64,000 nucleotides of DNA from positions 32,001 through 96,000 of the forward strand of contig CAVUZH010000022.1 in the NCBI GenBank assembly GCA_963745835.1, given 5' to 3'. The translations under genes were made by a program, and so were the position numbers. Position 1 is the stretch's first letter, and every line of letters starts with the position of its first letter. This document shows, in pieces, positions 31,919-40,873 of the stretch. The notes under the pieces are model-generated. The model was given only the letters and a program-made list of their open reading frames with translations, had not been told where the DNA came from and searched no databases. Source of the stretch: an uncultured delta proteobacterium (GTDB taxonomy: Bacteria; Desulfobacterota; Binatia; UBA9968).

Positions 31919-32637
31919 TTCCACTGTTCCGCCCCCCAGACCAAAATTGCCACAAGGCTCGCCGTGACCAACCAACCCCAGCCGGGGCTCGCGAGAGCAC
32001 CGGGCACCGCCAAGAATAACGCAGCAAGGCAGACGACCGGCATGGCCCAGCCGCGCATTTCCACCACCAACAGCCCTGCGAAATAGCCCGGCAGAATAAA
32101 CTTTAGCGCTTCTTCAAATCCTGTCGGAAAGCCGAGCGCAACGGCATATCCGAATGCGCTGCCGATAACCCAAACCAAAAAGCTGCTGGCGCCGACGCCT
32201 AGAAAGAAGGCCAAATTTTCATAGCCGACTGTGGACTCAGTAAACCCCGAATCGCCGGCGTCCTGTCGTTCCTTTTGAAACTGCAGATAAGGCACGATGA
32301 AACTGCTGGCGCTAACGACATGAGACGAAAGCAGCAAGTTGAGGCGGTTGACGCCGTGAAAGTATGGCGCCAGAGCCGCGCTCATGGGCAGAAAACGCAA
32401 GTTCATGAGAAAGCCTGCCACCAGCACCTGGACTGACGATTTGCCTTCCGCCAGCGGTCCTAAAACGGCGAATTGCGCCGGACCGGAGTAGACCCAGGCG
32501 GACATCAGGACAATTTCCGCGAATCTCATTCCGTGCGCTTGCGCGGCAATGCCCCAGGCGAGAGAGGATGGCACGAAGGCGATCCAGATCGGAATCGCCG
32601 CTTTCATTCCTTGACGAAAACGGAACGCGAAGCGCAT
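31894..32637 (-). CDS. azlC: AzlC-family permease
   Basis: FRQGMKAAIP, MSAWVYSGPAQF, LMNLRFLPMSAAL. Confidence 0.85.
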   Translation of the reverse strand: MRFAFRFRQGMKAAIPIWIAFVPSSLAWGIAAQAHGMRFAEIVLMSAWVYSGPAQFAVLGPLAEGKSSVQVLVAGFLMNLRFLPMSAALAPYFHGVNRLNLLLSSHVVSASSFIVPYLQFQKERQDAGDSGFTESTVGYENLAFFLGVGASSFLVWVIGSAFGYAVALGFPTGFEEALKFILPGYFAGLLVVEMRGWAMPVVCLAALFLAVPGALASPGWGWLVTASLVAILVWGAEQWKCRASALS

Positions 32638-32750
32638 TGAAACCGCTTAGCTGACGGCGGTTCAAAGATCAACCAAAGGCAGACGCTATCGCTTTCCACT
32701 CTCATTCAAGGACTTTCGCCGGTGTGAAATCTCAGTCACCATGCGCGTCA

Positions 32751-33410
32751 GTAGCAGGTTGCCAACGAACTGCGTGCGGTTTACGCCAAGCGAAACATCG
32801 ATCCCCAAGCCAAGCTTCAGCGGGCCCAACCCCAAGTCTCGGGAGCCGAGGATCTCAGCGGCTATGCTCCGAGGATTGTGGGAGAAGATGTGGAGCTTTT
32901 GGGGTTTGTCAATCGGCAGATTGGAGGACTGGACAAGGAGTTGATGAAGATCGCTCTTGAAGATGGCTCGGCTAAGCGGCTGATGACGATCCCGGGGGTG
33001 GGAGCGGTCAGTGCGGTGGCGATGAGCTGCTGGATTGGCGAGATTGCTCGATTTTCTAATGCGAAAAAGTTGGCCAGCTACTTTGGGTTGGCGCCGCGGG
33101 TGCGCCAGAGCGCCGAGACCGAACGCCATGGACATATCACCAAAGAAGGTAATCGCATGGTGCGCTCTCTGGTGATCCAAGCCGCCCTGGTGCATACGCG
33201 AAGGGGTAAAGGCCCGAGCCGTAAGCATTATTTCGGGGTGCTTAAAAGAAGAGGCAAGCCGATGTGAAAAACTCTGGTTGCAGGCTGCTTAAAAAGATCC
33301 AGAGGCAAGACGCGCGAAAAACGACGAGCTAAGGCGTACTTCCAGTACGTTGCAGCGAGACGTTTTGAGCCGCAACGAAGCATATGGGGTCTTTTTCAGC
33401 AGGCTGTCAG
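32751..33410 (+). mobile_element. MITE-like repeat copy C, interrupted inside its left TIR by a transposase fragment
   Basis: GTAGCAGGTTGC (32751-32762) | insert | TGAAAAACTC...CAGGCTGCTTAAAAAGATCCAG...CTTTTTCAGCAGGCTG (to 33406). Confidence 0.85.
32763..33264 (+). pseudogene. Internal fragment of the IS110-family transposase, lacking both IS ends
   Basis: Matches 38773-39273 except for one substitution seen by eye (GGCCCGAGC vs GGCCCCAGC), plus one extra G at 33264. Confidence 0.92.
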
Positions 33411-33454
33411 TCATATTGAATTCAACCATGGCTTATGCGAACTTGAATTCCCTC

Positions 33455-34843
33455 ATGACCGAACAAGCGACGCACCTGCTCCGCGAGCTGCCGTCAGTGG
33501 ACCGGCTCCTGAAGCATCCCCGTTGCGAAGCGCTGCTGGCCCGATACAACCGCGATTATCTCATTCAGAAATGCCGGGACGCGCTCGATCAAGCCAGGAT
33601 TGAAATCAGGCAAGGTAAAAGCTCCGCCGGAGGCGCAGTTAAAGACGACGCGATCGCAGCGCGAGTTGAGGCGCAAATCGCAACGGAGAGCCAACCGGGT
33701 CTTGTTCGAGTGGTGAACGCCACGGGCACGATCCTGCATACCAATCTCGGCCGGGCGCTCTTGTCCCAGGCTGCAATAGACGCGGTTCTCGGCGTGGCCG
33801 GTTGTCCGGTGAATCTGGAATACGATCTTACCGCGGGAAAGCGCGGCCGGCGCGAAGAAACCGTTGAAAAGTTACTGATTGAGCTGACTGGAGCCGAAGC
33901 AGCGACGGTGGTCAATAACAATGCCGCTGCTGTGCTGCTCGCTTTGAACAGTCTCGCCGAAGACCGGGAAGTCATCGTTTCGCGCGGCGAGCTGATCGAA
34001 ATCGGCGGCGCGTTTCGGATCCCGGAGATCATGGCTAAAAGCAACGCGATCTTAAAAGAAGTCGGCAGCACCAATCGCACGCACCCGGAAGACTACGAGC
34101 GAGCCATTAACGACAAGACGGCTCTGCTGCTAAAAGTGCATACCAGCAACTATAAGGTCGTGGGATTTACCGCCGAAGTCGATTTGGCGCAGCTCGTCGC
34201 CATTGGTAAGGAACACAACGTCCCGGTGATGGAAGATCTGGGCAGCGGCGCGCTCATCGATCTCAGCCGCTACGGGTTGCCGAAAGAGCCGCTCGTTGCC
34301 GAGCGCATCGATGCCGGTGCCGATGTGGTCACTTTCAGCGGCGATAAGATTCTCGGCGGCCCCCAGGCAGGGCTGTTGGTCGGGAAAAAAAGTCTCATCG
34401 GCAGGATGAACAAAAATCATCTGCAGCGCGCGCTGCGCTGCGGCAAATTGACCTTGGCGGCTTTGGAAGGAACGCTTCGGCGCTACCAGCAATCGCCTGA
34501 TATCACCCGGGAGATTCCGACCTTAAGAAGCTTCACCCGCGGTGTCGATGAAATCGGCGAACTGGGCAAACAGCTGTTGCCGAGACTTCAACGCGCGCTC
34601 GGCGACGATTACCGCTTAACTCTGGAAGAATCGACTTCGCAGATCGGCAGCGGCGCGCTACCCACTGAAGAGCTACCAACCGTAGTGATCGCGATTGTCC
34701 ATGAGACGCTCAACGCCAACCGAATCGCCGAAAGCTTTCGCCGCGCCAATCCGCCGATTATCGGCAGGATTCAAGACGAACGTTTTCTGCTCGACTTGAG
34801 AACGATCTTCGATGCCGAGGATTTGGTTCCAAAATTTGACTGA
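33455..34843 (+). CDS. selA: L-seryl-tRNA(Sec) selenium transferase (selenocysteine synthase)
   Basis: LPSVD, VVNATGTILHTNLGRA, VVNNNAAA, SRGELIEIGGAFRIP, EDLGSG, FSGDKILGGPQAG (PLP Lys). The track start at 33350 lies inside the MITE. Confidence 0.96.
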   Translation: MTEQATHLLRELPSVDRLLKHPRCEALLARYNRDYLIQKCRDALDQARIEIRQGKSSAGGAVKDDAIAARVEAQIATESQPGLVRVVNATGTILHTNLGRALLSQAAIDAVLGVAGCPVNLEYDLTAGKRGRREETVEKLLIELTGAEAATVVNNNAAAVLLALNSLAEDREVIVSRGELIEIGGAFRIPEIMAKSNAILKEVGSTNRTHPEDYERAINDKTALLLKVHTSNYKVVGFTAEVDLAQLVAIGKEHNVPVMEDLGSGALIDLSRYGLPKEPLVAERIDAGADVVTFSGDKILGGPQAGLLVGKKSLIGRMNKNHLQRALRCGKLTLAALEGTLRRYQQSPDITREIPTLRSFTRGVDEIGELGKQLLPRLQRALGDDYRLTLEESTSQIGSGALPTEELPTVVIAIVHETLNANRIAESFRRANPPIIGRIQDERFLLDLRTIFDAEDLVPKFD

Positions 34844-34870
34844 GACATCGCGCAAAGACGCAAAGAGATA

Positions 34871-34992
34871 AGGCGGTTCAAGAAGGTTCAAATGCGAGGC
34901 GCGCGAAGAGCGATGAGCGGAACCGTACTCATGTACGTTGACGCGAAATCGGTCGAGCGCAACGAAGCAGATGAGCCTTTTTCAACAGCCTA
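34871..34992 (+). mobile_element. MITE-like repeat copy D
   Basis: AGGCGGTTCAAGAAGG...GAGGCGCGCGA...GTACGTTG...GCAACGAAGCA...CCTTTTTCAACAGCCT. Confidence 0.85.
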
Positions 34993-35101
34993 AGAAAAGT
35001 TGGAAAAAATGCCCTACATCATCGGCACCGCTACGAGATAACTACGAAGTCGAATTTTAAAATGCCAACAGTTCCATAGAAGCAGCAGTCCAAATGTCAT
35101 T

Positions 35102-35224
35102 CAGGCTGTTCAAAAAGGTTCAAATGCGAGGCGCACGAAGGGCGATGAGCGGAAACGTACTCGTGTACGTTGATGCGAAATCGATCAAGCGCAACGAAGC
35201 AGATGAGCCTTTTTCAACAGCCTA
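35102..35224 (+). mobile_element. MITE-like repeat copy E (direct duplicate of D)
   Basis: CAGGCTGTTCAAAAAGG...CCTTTTTCAACAGCCT. Confidence 0.85.
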
Positions 35225-35241
35225 AGAAAAGTTGACAAAAA

Positions 35242-37173
35242 ATGCCTTACATCATCGGCACCGCCGGACACATCGACCACGGTAAAACCAGCCTGATCAA
35301 AGCTTTGACCGGCGAGGACACCGACCGGCTCAAGGAAGAAAAGGAGCGCGGCATTTCCATCGATTTGGGTTTTGCCCAACTCGATCTCGGCGACGGCAAT
35401 CTCGCCGGAGTTGTCGACGTTCCCGGCCATGAGCGCTTCATCAAGAACATGCTGGCGGGCGCGCACGGCATCGATCTGGTGCTCTTTACCGTTGCCGCCG
35501 ACGACGGCGTCATGCCGCAGACCGAAGAACACCTCGACATCGTTCACTTGCTCGGCATCAAGGTAGCCGTCTTCGTGATCACCAAAGCGGACCTGGTTTC
35601 GCAGCCGCGCATTGCCGAAGTGGAAGAGGAAATCAACATCTTGACTCTCGGAACCGTTCTGGAAGATTCGCCGATCATCGCGGTTTCCTCAGCCACCGGC
35701 CAGGGGCTCAGTGAGCTCAAGCAGCTTGTTTCTCAATCATTGAAGTCTATCGATAAACCGGCGCCGAGCGGCTACTTCCGCCTCCCGGTGGACCGCGCTT
35801 TCGTGTTGCAGGGCCATGGCGTAGTGGTGACCGGCACGGCGCGCAGCGGCGAGATCAGGACCGGCGATCGGGTGCGTTGCCTGCCCGGAGAGCAAATTTT
35901 TCGCGTGCGCAGCCTGCAGGTGCACGGAGAATCTGTCGAGCTTGCCGGCTGGGGCCAACGGGTGGCGCTGAATCTCACCGGACCCGATACCGCCGAAGTC
36001 GCGCGCGGCCACGTCATCTGTCACGAGAAGATCTCGCTGACTTCAAATCGCTTCGACGCCTACTTGGAAGTCCGTCCGGCGGCGCGCAAGGGCATCAAGA
36101 ACCATCAGAACGTGAGGGTCCATTTGGGGACCGCCGAACGGCTTGGCAAAGTCATCATCCTCGGCGAAAGGGACCATATCGAGCCGAAGCAATCGGCGTA
36201 CTGCCAGATCACGCTGGCCGAGCCGATCCTGGCTTTGCGCGGCGATCATTTCATTCTCCGCGATGAAACCGCGCAACGGACACTCGCCGGCGGCATGGTG
36301 ATCAACCCATGGGCCAGAAGACATAAGCGCTCCGACGATCTGCGCGACAAACTCGAAGCGCTACACCGCGGCGACATCACCCAACTGACGGAAGCGTTCC
36401 TGGAAGAAAGCGAAGCGTTTGCCTTGCCGCTGGAATCCATTTACCAGTTCCTCGATTGCCGAGAGGAACTGATTCGCAGCTCCATCGACAAAATGAAAAA
36501 TGTCCGCGCGGTCAGCGCGGAGGGCGAGAAAGTCTACACCACCGAGCCCAAATGGCAGCGTCTCAAAGAGCAGATTTCCAAGATCCTCAAGGATTTCCAC
36601 GCAACCCATCCGCTGGTTCCGGGCATGGATATGGAAGAGCTGCGCGGCAAGCTCGCCTACGAGCTTTCGCCCAAAGTCTTCCGGCTGGTGATCGACGGAC
36701 TGATCGGTGAACGGCTGATCGCCAAGGAAGAAAACCTGCTGCGGTTAGCCCAGCATAAACTTCAGCTTGGCGGTCAAGACAAGTTGCTGATGGAGCGAAT
36801 AAAGAAAATCCTTGCCGAACACGAGATGGCGCCGCCGGAGCTGAAACAGATCGAAAAAGACGCGGCGGTGCCGCGCGCGAAATTGGCCGAGGTGCTGCGC
36901 CTGCTCGAAAGAGAGCGGTCGGTGGTCAAAGTAGCTACCGATCTGTATTTCCTATCTAGTTGTGTCGACAAGGTTAAGAATCTGCTTTGCACGCACCTCG
37001 CCGAGCAGGGTGAAATATCGGCTGCCACATTTCGTGACCTGCTGGGATCAAGCCGAAAATATACCATTGCGCTATTGGAACATTTCGATCGAGAAGGCGT
37101 GACTCTGAGGGTCGGCGACGTTCGGCGCCTGAAAGCCGCTTCGGTAACTGAAAAGCGTGGCTCAGCGCATTGA
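35242..37173 (+). CDS. selB: Selenocysteine-specific translation elongation factor
   Basis: [42 protein letters not shown]-terminal SRKY.I.LLE.FDR winged helix. Confidence 0.97.
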
Positions 37174-37207
37174 ATTGAGTTTGCGATCGAACTACACTCA
37201 CAGGTCT

Positions 37208-38263
37208 ATGATGCTCGGAAATAAAAAAGCCGTTCGGCTGACGCAGTCAGTCAAAGCCGCGGGTTGAGCCGCTAAGCTCGGCCCTGCCGACCTCGTGCAA
37301 GTTTTGCACGATCTGCCAAAGTTCAACCACCCGGACATGTTGGTCGGGACGGAGACCTCCGACGACGCCGGAGTCTTCCGCTTGCGGCCGGATCTCGCAA
37401 TCGTCAACACGGTCGATTTCTTCACGCCGATTGTCGATGACCCGTATACCTTCGGACAGATCTCGGCGACCAATTCGCTCAGCGACGTCTACGCCATGGG
37501 CGGTGAGCCCAAGACATGCCTGAACCTCGTCTGTTTTCCAAAAGGCAAGATGGATATCGAAATCCTGGGAGAGATCCTCAAAGGCGGCGCTGATAAGGTC
37601 AAGGAAAGCGGCGCGGTGATCATCGGCGGTCACAGCATCATCGACGAAGAAATCAAATACGGTCTGGCCGTGACCGGGACCATCCATCCCGATAAGATCT
37701 ACCGCAATGTCGGCGTGCAGGAAGGCGACGCGCTGATTCTAACCAAACCTCTCGGCACCGGCATCATCACCACGGCTCTCAAGAAAGGTAAAGCTGCCGA
37801 ACAAAGCGTCGATCAAGCCGTTCGGTCGATGACCACGCTCAACGCCACGGCGTCTAACGTGATGCGCAAATTTGCCGTGCACGCCTGCTCGGATATAACC
37901 GGCTTTGGCATCCTTGGTCATGGTTTGGGAATGGCCAGCGGCAGCGGTGTGACTCTGGTGATCGAATCGGCCAAGCTGCCGCTTCTGCAAGATGCCACCC
38001 ATTTAGCCGAGAAAGGCTACATCACCGGCGGCTGCAAACGTAATCGCGAGTTTTTGCAGGATAAAATATTCATCGAAAACTCGATCCGTGAGGGGCTTAT
38101 CGAAGTAGCCTTGGACCCGCAAACCTCGGGCGGACTGCTGATAGCCGTCGCCAACCGACATGCATCACAGCTTCTTGAAGAGCTTAAGAGCGCAGGTATC
38201 GACGCGGCAACGCAAGTCGGCTATGCCACCTCGCTGCAGAAATCCTGGATACGGCTCGTCTGA
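37208..38263 (+). CDS. selD: Selenide, water dikinase, selenocysteine-containing
   Basis: MMLGNKKAVRLTQSVKAAG-U(TGA 37265-37267)-AAKLGP in frame with the track ORF at 37295; DDAGV, TVDFFTPIVDDP, SDVYAMGG, LTKPLGTG, DPQTSGGLL. Confidence 0.95.
37268..37311 (+). promoter_or_regulatory. Putative bacterial SECIS element
   Basis: After the UGA: TCGGC-cct-GCCGA (37278-37290), then an 8-bp stem TCGTGCAA-gtt-TTGCACGA (37293-37311) with a G-first apical loop 33 nt after the UGA. Confidence 0.7.
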
Positions 38264-38359
38264 ACCATCCGTTAGCAGGTTGCTGATCTTATAAACGGAA
38301 TGGCCTCCGCGCGACCGGCTATGGTACACCGGCGGAGACAAAACCTTAGGAGGCCAGCG

Positions 38360-39376
38360 ATGGAACATTTTGTTGGTATCGATTTACACAAGTACGTATC
38401 ACAATTGGCGGTGTTGAGGGAAAGCCGATCTCCTTCACAGTTGCGTTTGGCGAATGACGTTGTGGCGGTGGAACGGGTTTTAAAGAAACTTCCCAAGGGG
38501 AGCAAGATAGCGCTAGAGGCGATGGGTTCATGGTGGTGGATGGTGGAGCTAGCGCAAAAGACCGGCCACGAAGTGTTTTTGTCCCACCCCAAGCAGACCA
38601 AGGCGATCGCGTCAGCGCGGTTGAAGTCCGATAAGGTCGATGCTTTGATGTTGGCCAAGTTACTTAAGGCCGATCTGCTTCCCACGGTGTGGATCCCTCC
38701 TGAAAACCAACGTCATATTCGCGAGCTTCTGACCCACCGGGCGCGCCTGGTGCGTCAACGAACCGCTGTGATCAACGAACTGCGTGCGGTTTACGCCAAG
38801 CGAAACATCGATCCCCAAGCCAAGCTTCAGCGGGCCCAACCCCAAGTCTCGGGAGCCGAGGATCTCAGCGGCTATGCTCCGAGGATTGTGGGAGAAGATG
38901 TGGAGCTTTTGGGGTTTGTCAATCGGCAGATTGGAGGACTGGACAAGGAGTTGATGAAGATCGCTCTTGAAGATGGCTCGGCTAAGCGGCTGATGACGAT
39001 CCCGGGGGTGGGAGCGGTCAGTGCGGTGGCGATGAGCTGCTGGATTGGCGAGATTGCTCGATTTTCTAATGCGAAAAAGTTGGCCAGCTACTTTGGGTTG
39101 GCGCCGCGGGTGCGCCAGAGCGCCGAGACCGAACGCCATGGACATATCACCAAAGAAGGTAATCGCATGGTGCGCTCTCTGGTGATCCAAGCCGCCCTGG
39201 TGCATACGCGAAGGGGTAAAGGCCCCAGCCGTAAGCATTATTTCGGGGTGCTTAAAAGAAGAGGCAAGCCGATTGCCCGGGTGGCGGCGGCCAACAAACT
39301 GTTGGGCGTGATTTTTCATATGCTCAAAGAACGCATCGACTATCATGAATTCCTCAGGCGTAGCGACGCACAGTGA
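38360..39376 (+). CDS. IS110-family DEDD transposase / bridge recombinase (338 aa)
   Basis: AGGAGG RBS; VGIDLHK (D), ALEAMG (E), KSDKVDA (D,D); TIPGVG; YFGLAPRVRQSA (catalytic Ser); ITKEGN; ARVAAANKL. Confidence 0.96.
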   Translation: MEHFVGIDLHKYVSQLAVLRESRSPSQLRLANDVVAVERVLKKLPKGSKIALEAMGSWWWMVELAQKTGHEVFLSHPKQTKAIASARLKSDKVDALMLAKLLKADLLPTVWIPPENQRHIRELLTHRARLVRQRTAVINELRAVYAKRNIDPQAKLQRAQPQVSGAEDLSGYAPRIVGEDVELLGFVNRQIGGLDKELMKIALEDGSAKRLMTIPGVGAVSAVAMSCWIGEIARFSNAKKLASYFGLAPRVRQSAETERHGHITKEGNRMVRSLVIQAALVHTRRGKGPSRKHYFGVLKRRGKPIARVAAANKLLGVIFHMLKERIDYHEFLRRSDAQ

Positions 39377-39524
39377 GTCCGTACTTTTTCATGGTCGCAA
39401 GACCGAGTTGCTGATTGGGCAGCTGTGCCTCTCCAGAGGGAGAACCGCCGGATTTAAGATCATGCGCTTTTAAAGGGCGCGAAGAGATGAGTGGGTCGCT
39501 ACCCATACGTTGATCAGCCCGGCG
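39368..39524 (+). ncRNA. Bridge RNA / seekRNA of the IS (target-binding and donor-binding loops); ends approximate
   Basis: Guides CTTTTTCA (39384-39391) and GTTGCTGA (39407-39414) match the target; TAAGATCA (39455-39462) and AGAGATGA (39483-39490) match the circle junction; enclosing stems GCACAG/CTGTGC and CGCCGG/CCGGCG. Confidence 0.88.
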
Positions 39525-39643
39525 ATCAGAGCCGAAAAGGGGAATACCAGGAGTCATATTAAACCGAGATCGTGCGTTATAAGCGAAATACGGAGGTCTT
39601 TTTTTTAGAAATCATTGCAAAACAAAATCAGGCTGTAACCCAC

Positions 39644-39671
39644 TTGACTGAGCCGTTCCGTTTAGAGATGA
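39644..39671 (+). promoter_or_regulatory. -35 half of a circle-junction promoter
   Basis: TTGACT (39644-39649), 17 nt, then GATGAA in the chromosome but GATGAT once the right and left ends are joined. Confidence 0.6.
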
Positions 39672-39850
39672 AAAAGCCCATAGGCTTCGTTGCTCTCGAC
39701 CGATTGCGCGTCAACGTGCAGGAGCACGCCTCCGCTTATCGATCTTCGCGCGCATGGATCTTTTTGAGCAGCCCGCCACCGAACTCAGCAACCTGCTAAA
39801 CTTCTACACTTCCCGAAAATTCCTGGTTCGGCTGAGCACCAAATTAGATT

Positions 39851-40873
39851 TCATTTGCCACTTGCCAGCACCGATTTGATAAAGCCACTCTGGTCCAACT
39901 CGCGTACTAATTGGCTATCCGCGAAATCCTCGGGTTTCGCTCCTCTGGCTTTTGGAAACTGTTTCTCCAATTCTTGTAACAAGCTGGCGATCCCCGCCGG
40001 ATATGGAGGGACACTGAAACCATTTTTGATGCTCATCTCGTATGTCTCTTCCAGCACTTCGCGGTCGTCGCTGCGAAAATACTTTCCCATGGTTTTCATG
40101 GCAAAGGCCTTGTCCTTCTGCCCGCGAACCGCGCCTTCAATATAAGCTCGGAGAAAACGGCGCACGACATCCTCGTTGCCTTTGAGATACCTGCGGGTAG
40201 TCACCAGACCATTGACGTGATACTCGACATCGAGTTTTGACAGGTCCATCAAGTCCTTGAGCTTAACTCTTTTCGCTTGCAGTGTGGCCGGCGGGGAGAT
40301 CGCCGCCGCATGAACTTTGCCGGTCATCATGGCAGTCACCGTTTCCGCCGGCCCGCCGGTTTGAACCATGGTGACGTCGCGCTCCGGATCGAGGCCATGA
40401 AGGCGCAACGCGATGCGTGAGGCTAGATCCGATTGAGTACCGAACCGGGTCGTGCCAAATACTTTGCCTTTTAAATCTTCCATACGGCTAATGTTAGGCT
40501 GGCTGAAGATCCACCAGTTAAATTTCTTCGCGATCGTCGCGATCACGACCGTATCCGTGCCCGACAGGGCAGCTTGGATCGGACCCGCGCCGCCAGCTTG
40601 AATGATCGGCAGCTCTCCCGACAACATCGCCTGCAGCGCCAGCGAGCTTCCGGGAATACTGATGAGTTCGACATTGAGCCCGTTTTTTTCGTAGTAGTTT
40701 CCTTCTTTGGCAAACCAGATGGACATCTGCGCCGCCGATGCCGAGCCGCCGCCGCTTCGTAAATTTTCGAGCTTCTTCTCCTGAGCAAGCAAGCCCGATG
40801 ACCCAGAGATTGCAGACAAAATCACAGTGCACATTATCAGTCGATGGATGATCATACCTTCTCTCCTCATCAT
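39851..40873 (-). CDS. ABC substrate-binding protein (NMT1/SsuA-like)
   Basis: WFAKEGNYYEKNGLNVE, DLKGKVFGTTRFG. Confidence 0.88.
   Translation of the reverse strand: MMRREGMIIHRLIMCTVILSAISGSSGLLAQEKKLENLRSGGGSASAAQMSIWFAKEGNYYEKNGLNVELISIPGSSLALQAMLSGELPIIQAGGAGPIQAALSGTDTVVIATIAKKFNWWIFSQPNISRMEDLKGKVFGTTRFGTQSDLASRIALRLHGLDPERDVTMVQTGGPAETVTAMMTGKVHAAAISPPATLQAKRVKLKDLMDLSKLDVEYHVNGLVTTRRYLKGNEDVVRRFLRAYIEGAVRGQKDKAFAMKTMGKYFRSDDREVLEETYEMSIKNGFSVPPYPAGIASLLQELEKQFPKARGAKPEDFADSQLVRELDQSGFIKSVLASGK

Follow-up and report, generated by a model that had tools for sequence, protein, structure and literature searches.

The window analysed here, a stretch of 64,000 nucleotides, carries a 502-bp insert in one end of a MITE and, about 5.5 kb downstream of it, a full-length insertion sequence of the IS110 family, which is the likely source of the insert. 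Features are listed in Table 1, together with the positions in the source IS at which this insert (the C22 fragment) and a similar one found on C3 begin and end.

Table 1. Features of the locus and inner boundaries of the two fragments, numbered along the window. A slash marks the bond at which a boundary lies.
Feature	Position	Strand	Evidence or detail
MITE left end (terminal inverted repeat), ending in the left target half GTTGC	32747..32762	+	read directly; family end consensus
502-bp insert	32763..33264	+	blastn, base comparison, Pfam; empty-site contigs in runs X1, X6, X9
Open frame of 129 aa, GTG start, transposase frame	32878..33267	+	ORF list, Pfam
Remainder of MITE, 146 bp, from TGAAAAAC (core and right target half) to the other inverted repeat	33265..33410	+	blastn
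Full-length resident IS, 1385 bp, IS110 family, IS1111 group	38284..39668	+	sequence; both ends set by alignment with the C19 copy and 37 metagenome relatives
Recombinase gene, 338 aa	38360..39376	+	Pfam
Guide (bridge/seek) RNA region, 3' of the gene	39377..39545	+	conserved stems, 24-sequence alignment; guide/flank agreement
Target loop arms	39383-39391, 39407-39414	+	guide RNA region
Donor loop arms	39455-39462, 39483-39490	+	guide RNA region
Internal TGATC, identical to the first 5 bases of the IS	38769..38773	+	motif scan; fragment starts at its last base
Internal TGATC, right breakpoint of C3 fragment	39183..39187	+	junction ctctggTGA/aaaac
Right breakpoint region of fragment in source, GAT/TGC	39271..39276	+	sequence, base comparison
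C22 fragment, left boundary	38769-38773		TGAT/C
C22 fragment, right boundary	39271-39274		GAT/T
C3 fragment, left boundary	38692		GGA/TCC
C3 fragment, right boundary	39183		within TGA of TGATCC

Alignment of window positions 32763-33263 with 38773-39273 by blastn gave 501 bp at 99.8% identity, with 1 mismatch and 0 gaps. Compared base by base, the insert differed from its source at 2 positions, 33216 (G, against C at 39226) and the last base 33264 (G, against T at 39274), and it consists of IS positions 490-990 followed by one terminal G. The first-pass annotation had described a 502-bp match to the interior of the IS110 transposase, with one SNP and an extra G, from which the IS ends, the repeats and the bridge RNA are missing and at which TGA is not duplicated; all of this was confirmed. 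The insert contains the complete Transposase_20 domain (Pfam) and lacks both IS ends, the subterminal repeats, the DEDD domain and the entire guide-RNA region. Neither of the two IS termini, which provide the donor halves of a donor junction, is present. Since it lacks IS ends, guide RNA and DEDD domain, the fragment is immobile, unable to move again. Read across the site, left flank gtcagtagcaggttgc is followed by the insert and by right flank tgaaaaactctgg; the insert thus separates GTTGC from TGAAAAAC of the MITE end, with TGA present once, on the right side only, and with no MITE base lost or duplicated.

The resident IS is intact in its ORF and in its ends, and the donor was therefore not consumed. 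Its site is again a MITE end, of another copy, with GTTGC to the left and TGA-AAAAG to the right of the element and the shared TGA at 39669-39671. Two domains were recognised by Pfam in its recombinase, DEDD_Tnp_IS110 (PF01548, residues 5-144, E 4.9e-18) and Transposase_20 (PF02371, residues 209-294, E 5e-24). In the account of Durrant et al. (PMC11208160), elements of the IS1111 group have a short left end, a long right end and a guide RNA downstream of the gene. The left non-coding end of the resident IS is 76 nt long (38284-38359) and the right one 292 nt (39377-39668), the guide RNA region lies 3' of the gene, and subterminal inverted repeats, for which 7-17 bp is the range applied to the group, read TAAACGG on the left and CCGTTTA on the right (identified by eye, unscored) and are kept in all aligned relatives. 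On these characters the element belongs to the IS1111 group.

For the guide RNA, the right ends of 24 sequences were folded. The target loops read GTTGCTGA (39407-39414) and, as reverse complement, TGAAAAAG (39383-39391), and the donor loops AGAGATGA and, again as reverse complement, TGATCTTA; the target specified is GTTGC-TGA-AAAAG. The 5-nt left guide was identical to the 5 nt of the left flank at 31 of 38 loci and matched it at no fewer than 4 of the 5 positions at 37 of the 38, an agreement reached in 0 of 2000 shuffles, the 38 loci being related so that these counts overstate their independence; 7 distinct guide types match perfectly among them. The guide RNA reading, based on folding and flank comparison, is sound. 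No Rfam family was found for it: a scan of 32000-40500 with E up to 1 returned only a chance viral hit, and a scan of locus L071 at the gathering threshold returned nothing. With the loops read, the insertion site agrees with the guide-specified target at 12 of 13 positions, as had been claimed, and the insert lies, also as claimed, at the guide-specified bond, which the empty-site contigs described below show to the base.

The host repeat has the characters of a MITE, being small (about 160 bp without the insert), non-coding, bounded by terminal inverted repeats and dispersed over the genome in about 100 copies at 71-92% identity (blastn). A search of the genome with the 148 bp that follow the insert gave 116 blastn hits, 104 of which start within the first 25 query bases. 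Many of these 104, including most of the better-matching copies, have ctagcagg(t/g)tgc directly 5' of TGAAAAA, and the ends ctagcaggttgcTGAAAAA and their inverted counterpart are likewise present in many. An otherwise intact MITE terminus is therefore broken up by the insert. This would split the target of the MITE; and as fragment and full IS have 501 bp in common in direct orientation, the 6 kb that separate them could be lost or duplicated by RecA-mediated recombination. Two other routes to such an arrangement were considered and rejected: insertion of a MITE into an IS, because the 16 bp left of the insert read inward from the MITE terminus, and template switching between MITEs, which would copy IS ends and not the interior.

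Public runs X1, X5, X6 and X9, from four studies, were compared with the window at this locus. Position 32762 was joined directly to 33265 in contigs of X1 (depth 11.9), X6 (6.75) and X9 (6.25), from three studies; the short sides of these contigs measure 19-25 nt and stop in the repeat, and the long sides cover 138-463 nt of unique flank with 0-5 differences. These contigs show that the site occurs empty in nature and that the insert measures exactly 502 bp. As empty alleles are found elsewhere, we concluded that the insert is a recent, polymorphic gain relative to an intact MITE. According to the first-pass annotation, an empty site at this place would have spoken against the insert; one was indeed seen, in other samples only, and it reveals a polymorphism, not an artefact. 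The X5 joint runs from 32683 to 33265, with room for about 80 diverged bases in between. Position 33763 differs between the window and each of the four runs, none of which can therefore simply be the strain of the window. No contig of X1, X5, X6 or X9 spanned the filled junctions; these are other samples and silent on the source sample, and the insert's own junctions come from the source assembly only. Likewise, a full IS was not demonstrable at this site in any of the four runs, the loose ends CGCTGTGAT before 32763 and TGCCCGGG after 33263 being from full IS copies. One X6 contig joins an IS right end to TGAAAAAC, either at this site or at another MITE copy. A further X6 joint, from 32684 to 33411 (depth 3.2, side 35), suggests an allele without the whole MITE and 62 further bases, in the same organism or in another.

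The single mismatch is informative as to the origin of the insert. At 33216 the fragment has a G, as do 17 of 17 other close copies (the one on C19 and 16 metagenome loci), and the resident IS has a synonymous C. The fragment keeps the family-wide, ancestral base, so it is an independent copy and not a duplicated assembly path.

Four IS-derived stretches were found in the genome, 2 full copies and 2 fragments. The second full copy, on C19, is frameshifted and 96% identical to the resident IS. All four stretches lie at the GC/TGA bond of MITE ends. Random deletions or insertions would not strike this bond four times, and we therefore infer that the outer boundaries were set by the recombinase. 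The second fragment lies at the same bond of another MITE, on C3 (G000:C3:491055-491549, minus strand, 495 bp, about 98% identity), between GTTGC and TGAAAAAC. It corresponds to IS positions 38694-39185, with 97.8% identity and two 1-nt deletions, and is the older of the two. The inserts are of similar size (502 and 495 bp) and offset by about 80 bp in the IS. At the right joint of the C3 fragment, ctctgg-TGA-aaaac, where the source has ctctggTGATCcaag, the sequence is exactly the canonical LD'-core-RT product. The left joint, GTTGC-TGA-acttg-tccctcc, has 5 extra bases; TGAACTTGT at this joint shares 7 of 9 positions with the true left end, TGATCTTAT.

Among the 41 genomes searched, close copies occur in the same genus only and no other interior fragment was seen at a target; a scan of the genome contigs gave 9 loci and no new fragment. 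Out of 49 loci in a metagenome scan, 47 had DNA-level similarity to the IS, none of these with an interior-only fragment between target halves. Loci L005/L070 correspond to a scrambled remnant, L054 and L058 appear left-truncated, and L055 is only more diverged.

We then come to the inner boundaries. The IS contains 15 GATC sites and 4 TGATC, one of the latter being its own first five bases and 3 being internal. The TGAT at 38769-38772 does precede the left breakpoint in the source, as the letters had suggested at first sight. Three of the four inner boundaries fall inside GATC, against a background of 42 GATC-internal bonds among 1396 (3%), and 2 of these 3 fall within TGATC. At the left boundary of the C22 fragment, TGATC corresponds to the core and the first two right-donor bases, with 5 of 8 positions matching TGATCTTA. 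The right breakpoint of that fragment, 39273/39274, is outside GATC and without convincing donor match. The TTGC found there resembles the left target half. In sequence, the inner boundaries look like right-donor half-sites. The TGATC at 38769 is also a breakpoint in L003, from a genome of the same genus, in which the IS extends up to ccgctg and is followed by unrelated DNA. At metagenome locus L059, an internal deletion of 351-352 bp, from TGATC(A) to aGATCAag, starts at this same TGATC; L059 is 95% identical to L029 on both sides of the deletion, and the joint is 3 nt off register.

Direct repeats flank both fragments in the source, GAT (3 nt) for C22 and GATCC (5 nt) for C3. Among random fragments of 300-700 bp, a repeat of at least 3 nt was present in 5.8% of trials and one of at least 5 nt in 0.6%, these statistics, like those on the motifs, being post hoc and bearing on few events and two fragments. 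Such a flanking repeat is relevant only if the fragment ends were once joined, as in a circle or in the reciprocal product of a deletion.

Canonical bridge recombination yields LT-core-RD' and LD'-core-RT, with the core on both sides. The C22 fragment departs from this form: its left joint, GTTGC/CAACG, is without core, and in its right joint TGA is preceded by an additional G. From a clean event at TGATC one expects GTTGC-TGATC-AACG, and GTTGC-CAACG was observed, with TGAT missing. Considering both C22 and C3 joints, the right joint of C3 alone fits the canonical form. The C3 fragment as a whole fits a 492-bp circle running from GATCC to GATCC in canonical register, except for the 5 extra bases on the left. 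A single register for both C22 joints was sought and abandoned, as a TG core, heteroduplex cores and circles of 501, 502, 503 or 504 bp each need an extra assumption. In one reading the terminal G would be G38770, placed there by circular permutation, and this agreement has a 1-in-4 chance of being coincidental. Aberrant bridge recombination at cryptic donor sites, as put forward in the first-pass annotation, is thus retained in part: cryptic sites are indicated by TGATC at the left of C22, at the right of C3 and at the breakpoints of two related elements, and a clean recombination is not, both C22 joints being off register (TGAT missing on one side, one extra base on the other).

The explanation that we favour, with moderate confidence, is that the fragment is a partial product of about 0.5 kb made by the bridge recombinase of the resident IS, probably a partial circle, which was imprecisely sealed or re-inserted. 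A segment of about 0.5 kb from the interior of the transposase gene would have been released or copied; at its limits are short GAT(C) motifs, which imitate the right-donor half-site (TGATC) with which the IS begins. The released segment would most likely have been a small partial circle, as the GAT and GATCC repeats indirectly suggest. It would then have been inserted at an ordinary target, the GTTGC/TGA bond of the MITE end 5.5 kb upstream of the IS. Joints lying a few bases off the canonical register would reflect imprecise sealing, either by mis-registered strand transfer or by host end joining. Sun et al. (bioRxiv 10.1101/2025.10.25.684509) propose copy-out followed by transfer of the top strand only, completed by the host, and such a pathway could be a source of imprecise joints.

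Alternatively, the fragment may be what is left in place of a full IS that inserted normally and then lost both ends by two deletions, as had been proposed at the outset. We regard this as a rival that is still live, albeit rather unlikely. Each deletion would run from an IS-target junction to an internal site, the left one over about 489 bp and the right one over about 395 bp, and they could be 'adjacent' deletions made by the recombinase itself, between a true junction and an internal half-site. Several features of the C3 fragment agree with such a history, namely the TGA and the 9-nt stretch resembling the true left end that it keeps, and its right joint, which is the product expected of a TGA-to-TGA deletion. 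The four missing pieces are moreover alike in size (489 and 395 bp for the C22 fragment, 410 and 483 bp for that on C3), the L059 deletion starts from the same TGATC within an otherwise complete copy, and rare deletions between sites are described by Durrant et al. (PMC11208160). However, three events, an insertion and two flank-exact deletions, would have to fit within the time taken to accumulate one SNP, at a site whose flanks are near-identical to the empty alleles of other samples and where the four runs gave no demonstrable full IS. The left joint is also without the core that recombination between a junction and a half-site keeps, and the direct repeat common to the two ends of each fragment is left unexplained.

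Capture of stray DNA during repair of a double-strand break is, in our opinion, improbable. The break would have occurred at or near the target, and host Ku/LigD end joining would have inserted IS DNA cut at GATC by a host nuclease, and not by the recombinase. Junctions without microhomology and with filler bases (G here, 5 nt on C3) are typical of end joining, which is plausible in this organism as 4 Ku genes score above the Pfam cut-off, and the presence of 3 of 4 inner boundaries inside GATC would suit a nuclease of that specificity. Yet a host GATC nuclease is not supported: no gene of the DpnII, MutH/Sau3AI or D12 Dam families was found in this genome, which is 97% complete, GATC is not depleted (observed/expected 0.99), and the fragment itself contains 5 uncut internal GATC sites. 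Furthermore, it is IS DNA that was captured in both cases, precisely at the bond specified by the guide, and this implicates the recombinase; no foreign non-IS insertion at the target bond stood out among the 104 MITE-end contexts, inspected by eye and including many diverged ends.

An assembly artefact, with 501 bp that recur in the IS 5.5 kb away wrongly placed in the MITE by the assembler, was raised in the first-pass annotation as a real alternative, and we now hold it to be very improbable. The assembly is of metagenome type, with 25 contigs and 9.3% contamination, the filled junctions appear in no independent data set, and the difference at 33763 sets all four public runs apart from the window. 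A collapsed repeat cannot, however, create two novel junctions at the exact biological bond, nor does it account for the family-wide base kept by the fragment where the resident IS differs, or for a fragment of the same architecture on C3, 2% diverged and with indels. The assembly contains no second allele of the locus.

Finally, we give hardly any credence to a domesticated piece that would damp transposition of the full IS through the 129-aa Transposase_20 ORF or an antisense RNA: the transposase frame is open from 32755, the ORF has the complete domain (E 4.8e-25, Pfam) and its stop codon is the TGA belonging to the MITE, but the first start codon comes after 115 nt of the fragment, a search of 32550-33480 gave no promoter-like site, the allele is absent from all four other samples, and on C3 the fragment has a frameshift and breaks off within the domain. 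The ORF is probably not expressed, and the fragment likely has no function.

Returning to a partial product of the recombinase, a broader and distinctly speculative extension, to which we attach a low probability, is that this recombinase family regularly acts on half-matched GATC/TGATC sites in its own gene, giving partial circles of about 0.5 kb, a length near the optimum for DNA ring closure, and then non-conservative joints at bona fide targets, with core bases lost and filler bases added. If so, a 'break-free' recombinase leaves break-and-repair scars when only half a site matches, and relics of this kind could serve to chart the errors that it makes in nature. Programmable genome editing without breaks is the use for which bridge (seek) RNA recombinases are being developed, and natural relics record the errors of such enzymes. 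The record here would be of a target bond chosen correctly, of donor boundaries at cryptic half-sites in the transposase gene, and of imprecise joints. An interior IS fragment without ends, moreover, need not mean slow decay; it can be recent and polymorphic.

Elements of the IS1111 group of the IS4321/IS5075 type have subterminal repeats and use the terminal inverted repeat of another mobile element as target, inserting at a fixed position within it. Their targets are the terminal inverted repeats of transposons, whereas the host is here a MITE of about 160 bp present in about 100 copies, and to our knowledge interior fragments at the target are not part of their description. As in IS621 (Durrant et al., PMC11208160), the recombinase is RNA-guided, with target and donor loops. 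IS621 belongs to the IS110 group, its core being CT and its guide RNA lying in the left end, whereas the present element, of the IS1111 group, has the guide RNA in a right end of about 300 nt and TG(A) common to donor and target. Rare events at donor-like genomic sequences, and rare deletions and inversions between sites, are reported for IS621 (PMC11208160); in the results of that study considered here, its off-targets are insertions of the whole donor and not interior fragments.

A closer likeness is offered by ISPpu9 of Pseudomonas putida, an IS110-family element that targets repeated palindromic elements and forms several sub-element circles containing parts of the element (PMC12288879). 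Isolated partial modules are also present in the chromosome in that case, one of them with a 3' tnp fragment. These modules are bounded, in the description given there, by duplicated end boxes (A/A', B/B') with an AG crossover, whereas the boundaries here are cryptic GAT(C) motifs, with no end box or sRNA.

The closest parallel is with Hu et al. (bioRxiv 10.64898/2026.08.14.744561), who report in a preprint that partial circles of IS110 elements form under the guidance of one half-match, to RD or to LD, that internal endpoints recur, and that partial fragments, more than 99% identical and with empty sites, have reintegrated. Several characters of those fragments are also found at our locus: a sub-element piece more than 99% identical to its intact parent lies at another chromosomal site, an empty allele exists, the donor is intact, one boundary has a right-donor half-match only, and internal endpoints recur. 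The loci of that preprint are mainly expanded and cargo-bearing, as far as its account goes, in contrast with the compact 1.4 kb element of the IS1111 group studied here, in which both boundaries are internal, the joints are 1-5 bases off register and the circle is deduced from sequence. Partial circles of IS110 elements and their reintegration being already reported in that work, the present case is of limited added value; what it adds is an example from the IS1111 group for which an empty allele is known, another such fragment in the same genome, and the GATC pattern of the boundaries.

A second interior fragment of the IS was found in the source genome, G000, outside the window. It is 97.8% identical to the corresponding part of the resident IS, with two 1-nt deletions, and its insertion point is the bond between GTTGC and TGAAAAAC, the same as that of the window fragment, in a different copy of the MITE, which is itself internally shortened. 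Coordinates are collected in the table below.

Features outside the window that are related to the resident IS or to its right end
Feature	Location	Remarks
Second interior IS fragment	G000:C3:491055-491549	minus strand; matches window 38694-39185
Second full-length IS copy	G000:C19:502583-503969	96% identical
Related IS with internal deletion	L059:1306-2009	metagenome contig; sits in a ctagcaggctgc/TGA site
IS sequence ending at the internal TGATC	L003:1-126	same-genus genome G001; 94% identical
Scrambled remnant of a related IS	L005:1490-1800 (= L070)	
1518-bp repeat, three near-identical copies	G000: C13:760041-761558; C3:1165166-1166683; C14:245446-246962	

The internal TGATC, at whose last base the window fragment starts, is a breakpoint in relatives of the IS. 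The deleted element of L059 has lost 351-352 bp, from this same TGATC to another GATCA, the joint being 3 nt out of register. At L003 the IS match stops exactly ahead of the TGATC and gives way to unrelated DNA, followed about 145 bp beyond by a gene region homologous to G000 C13:239861 downwards. In the source, the surroundings of the TGATC contain TCAACGAAC, a 9-nt direct repeat whose two copies lie 13 nt apart (window 38751-38780); the window fragment starts at the second copy. In the scrambled remnant L005, a 34-bp piece in inverted orientation is followed by IS positions 436-590, and these adjoin the left end and first codons, in reverse complement, of another IS copy.

In X6, a public run from another study, one low-depth contig connects window 32684 to 33411, skipping 32685-33410. 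This would correspond to an allele devoid of the MITE and of 62 more bases on its left, so the incoming unit may be larger than the MITE consensus. Alternatively, the contig may come from another organism.

Within the right end of the IS, 42 bp (window 39564-39605) share about 90% identity with part of the 1518-bp repeat, which encodes a 459-aa HTH-domain protein and is probably another IS. This stretch, for which Rfam gave no match, recurs at 83-95% identity in nine other genomes (G004, G009, G014, G015, G017, G018, G020, G024 and G029), and G033, as well as a second locus of G018, gave overlapping matches of about 38 bp.

The full-length copy on C19, which has several frameshifts and has lost one nucleotide from the donor-loop arm, is probably dead; the window copy would therefore be the sole intact one.
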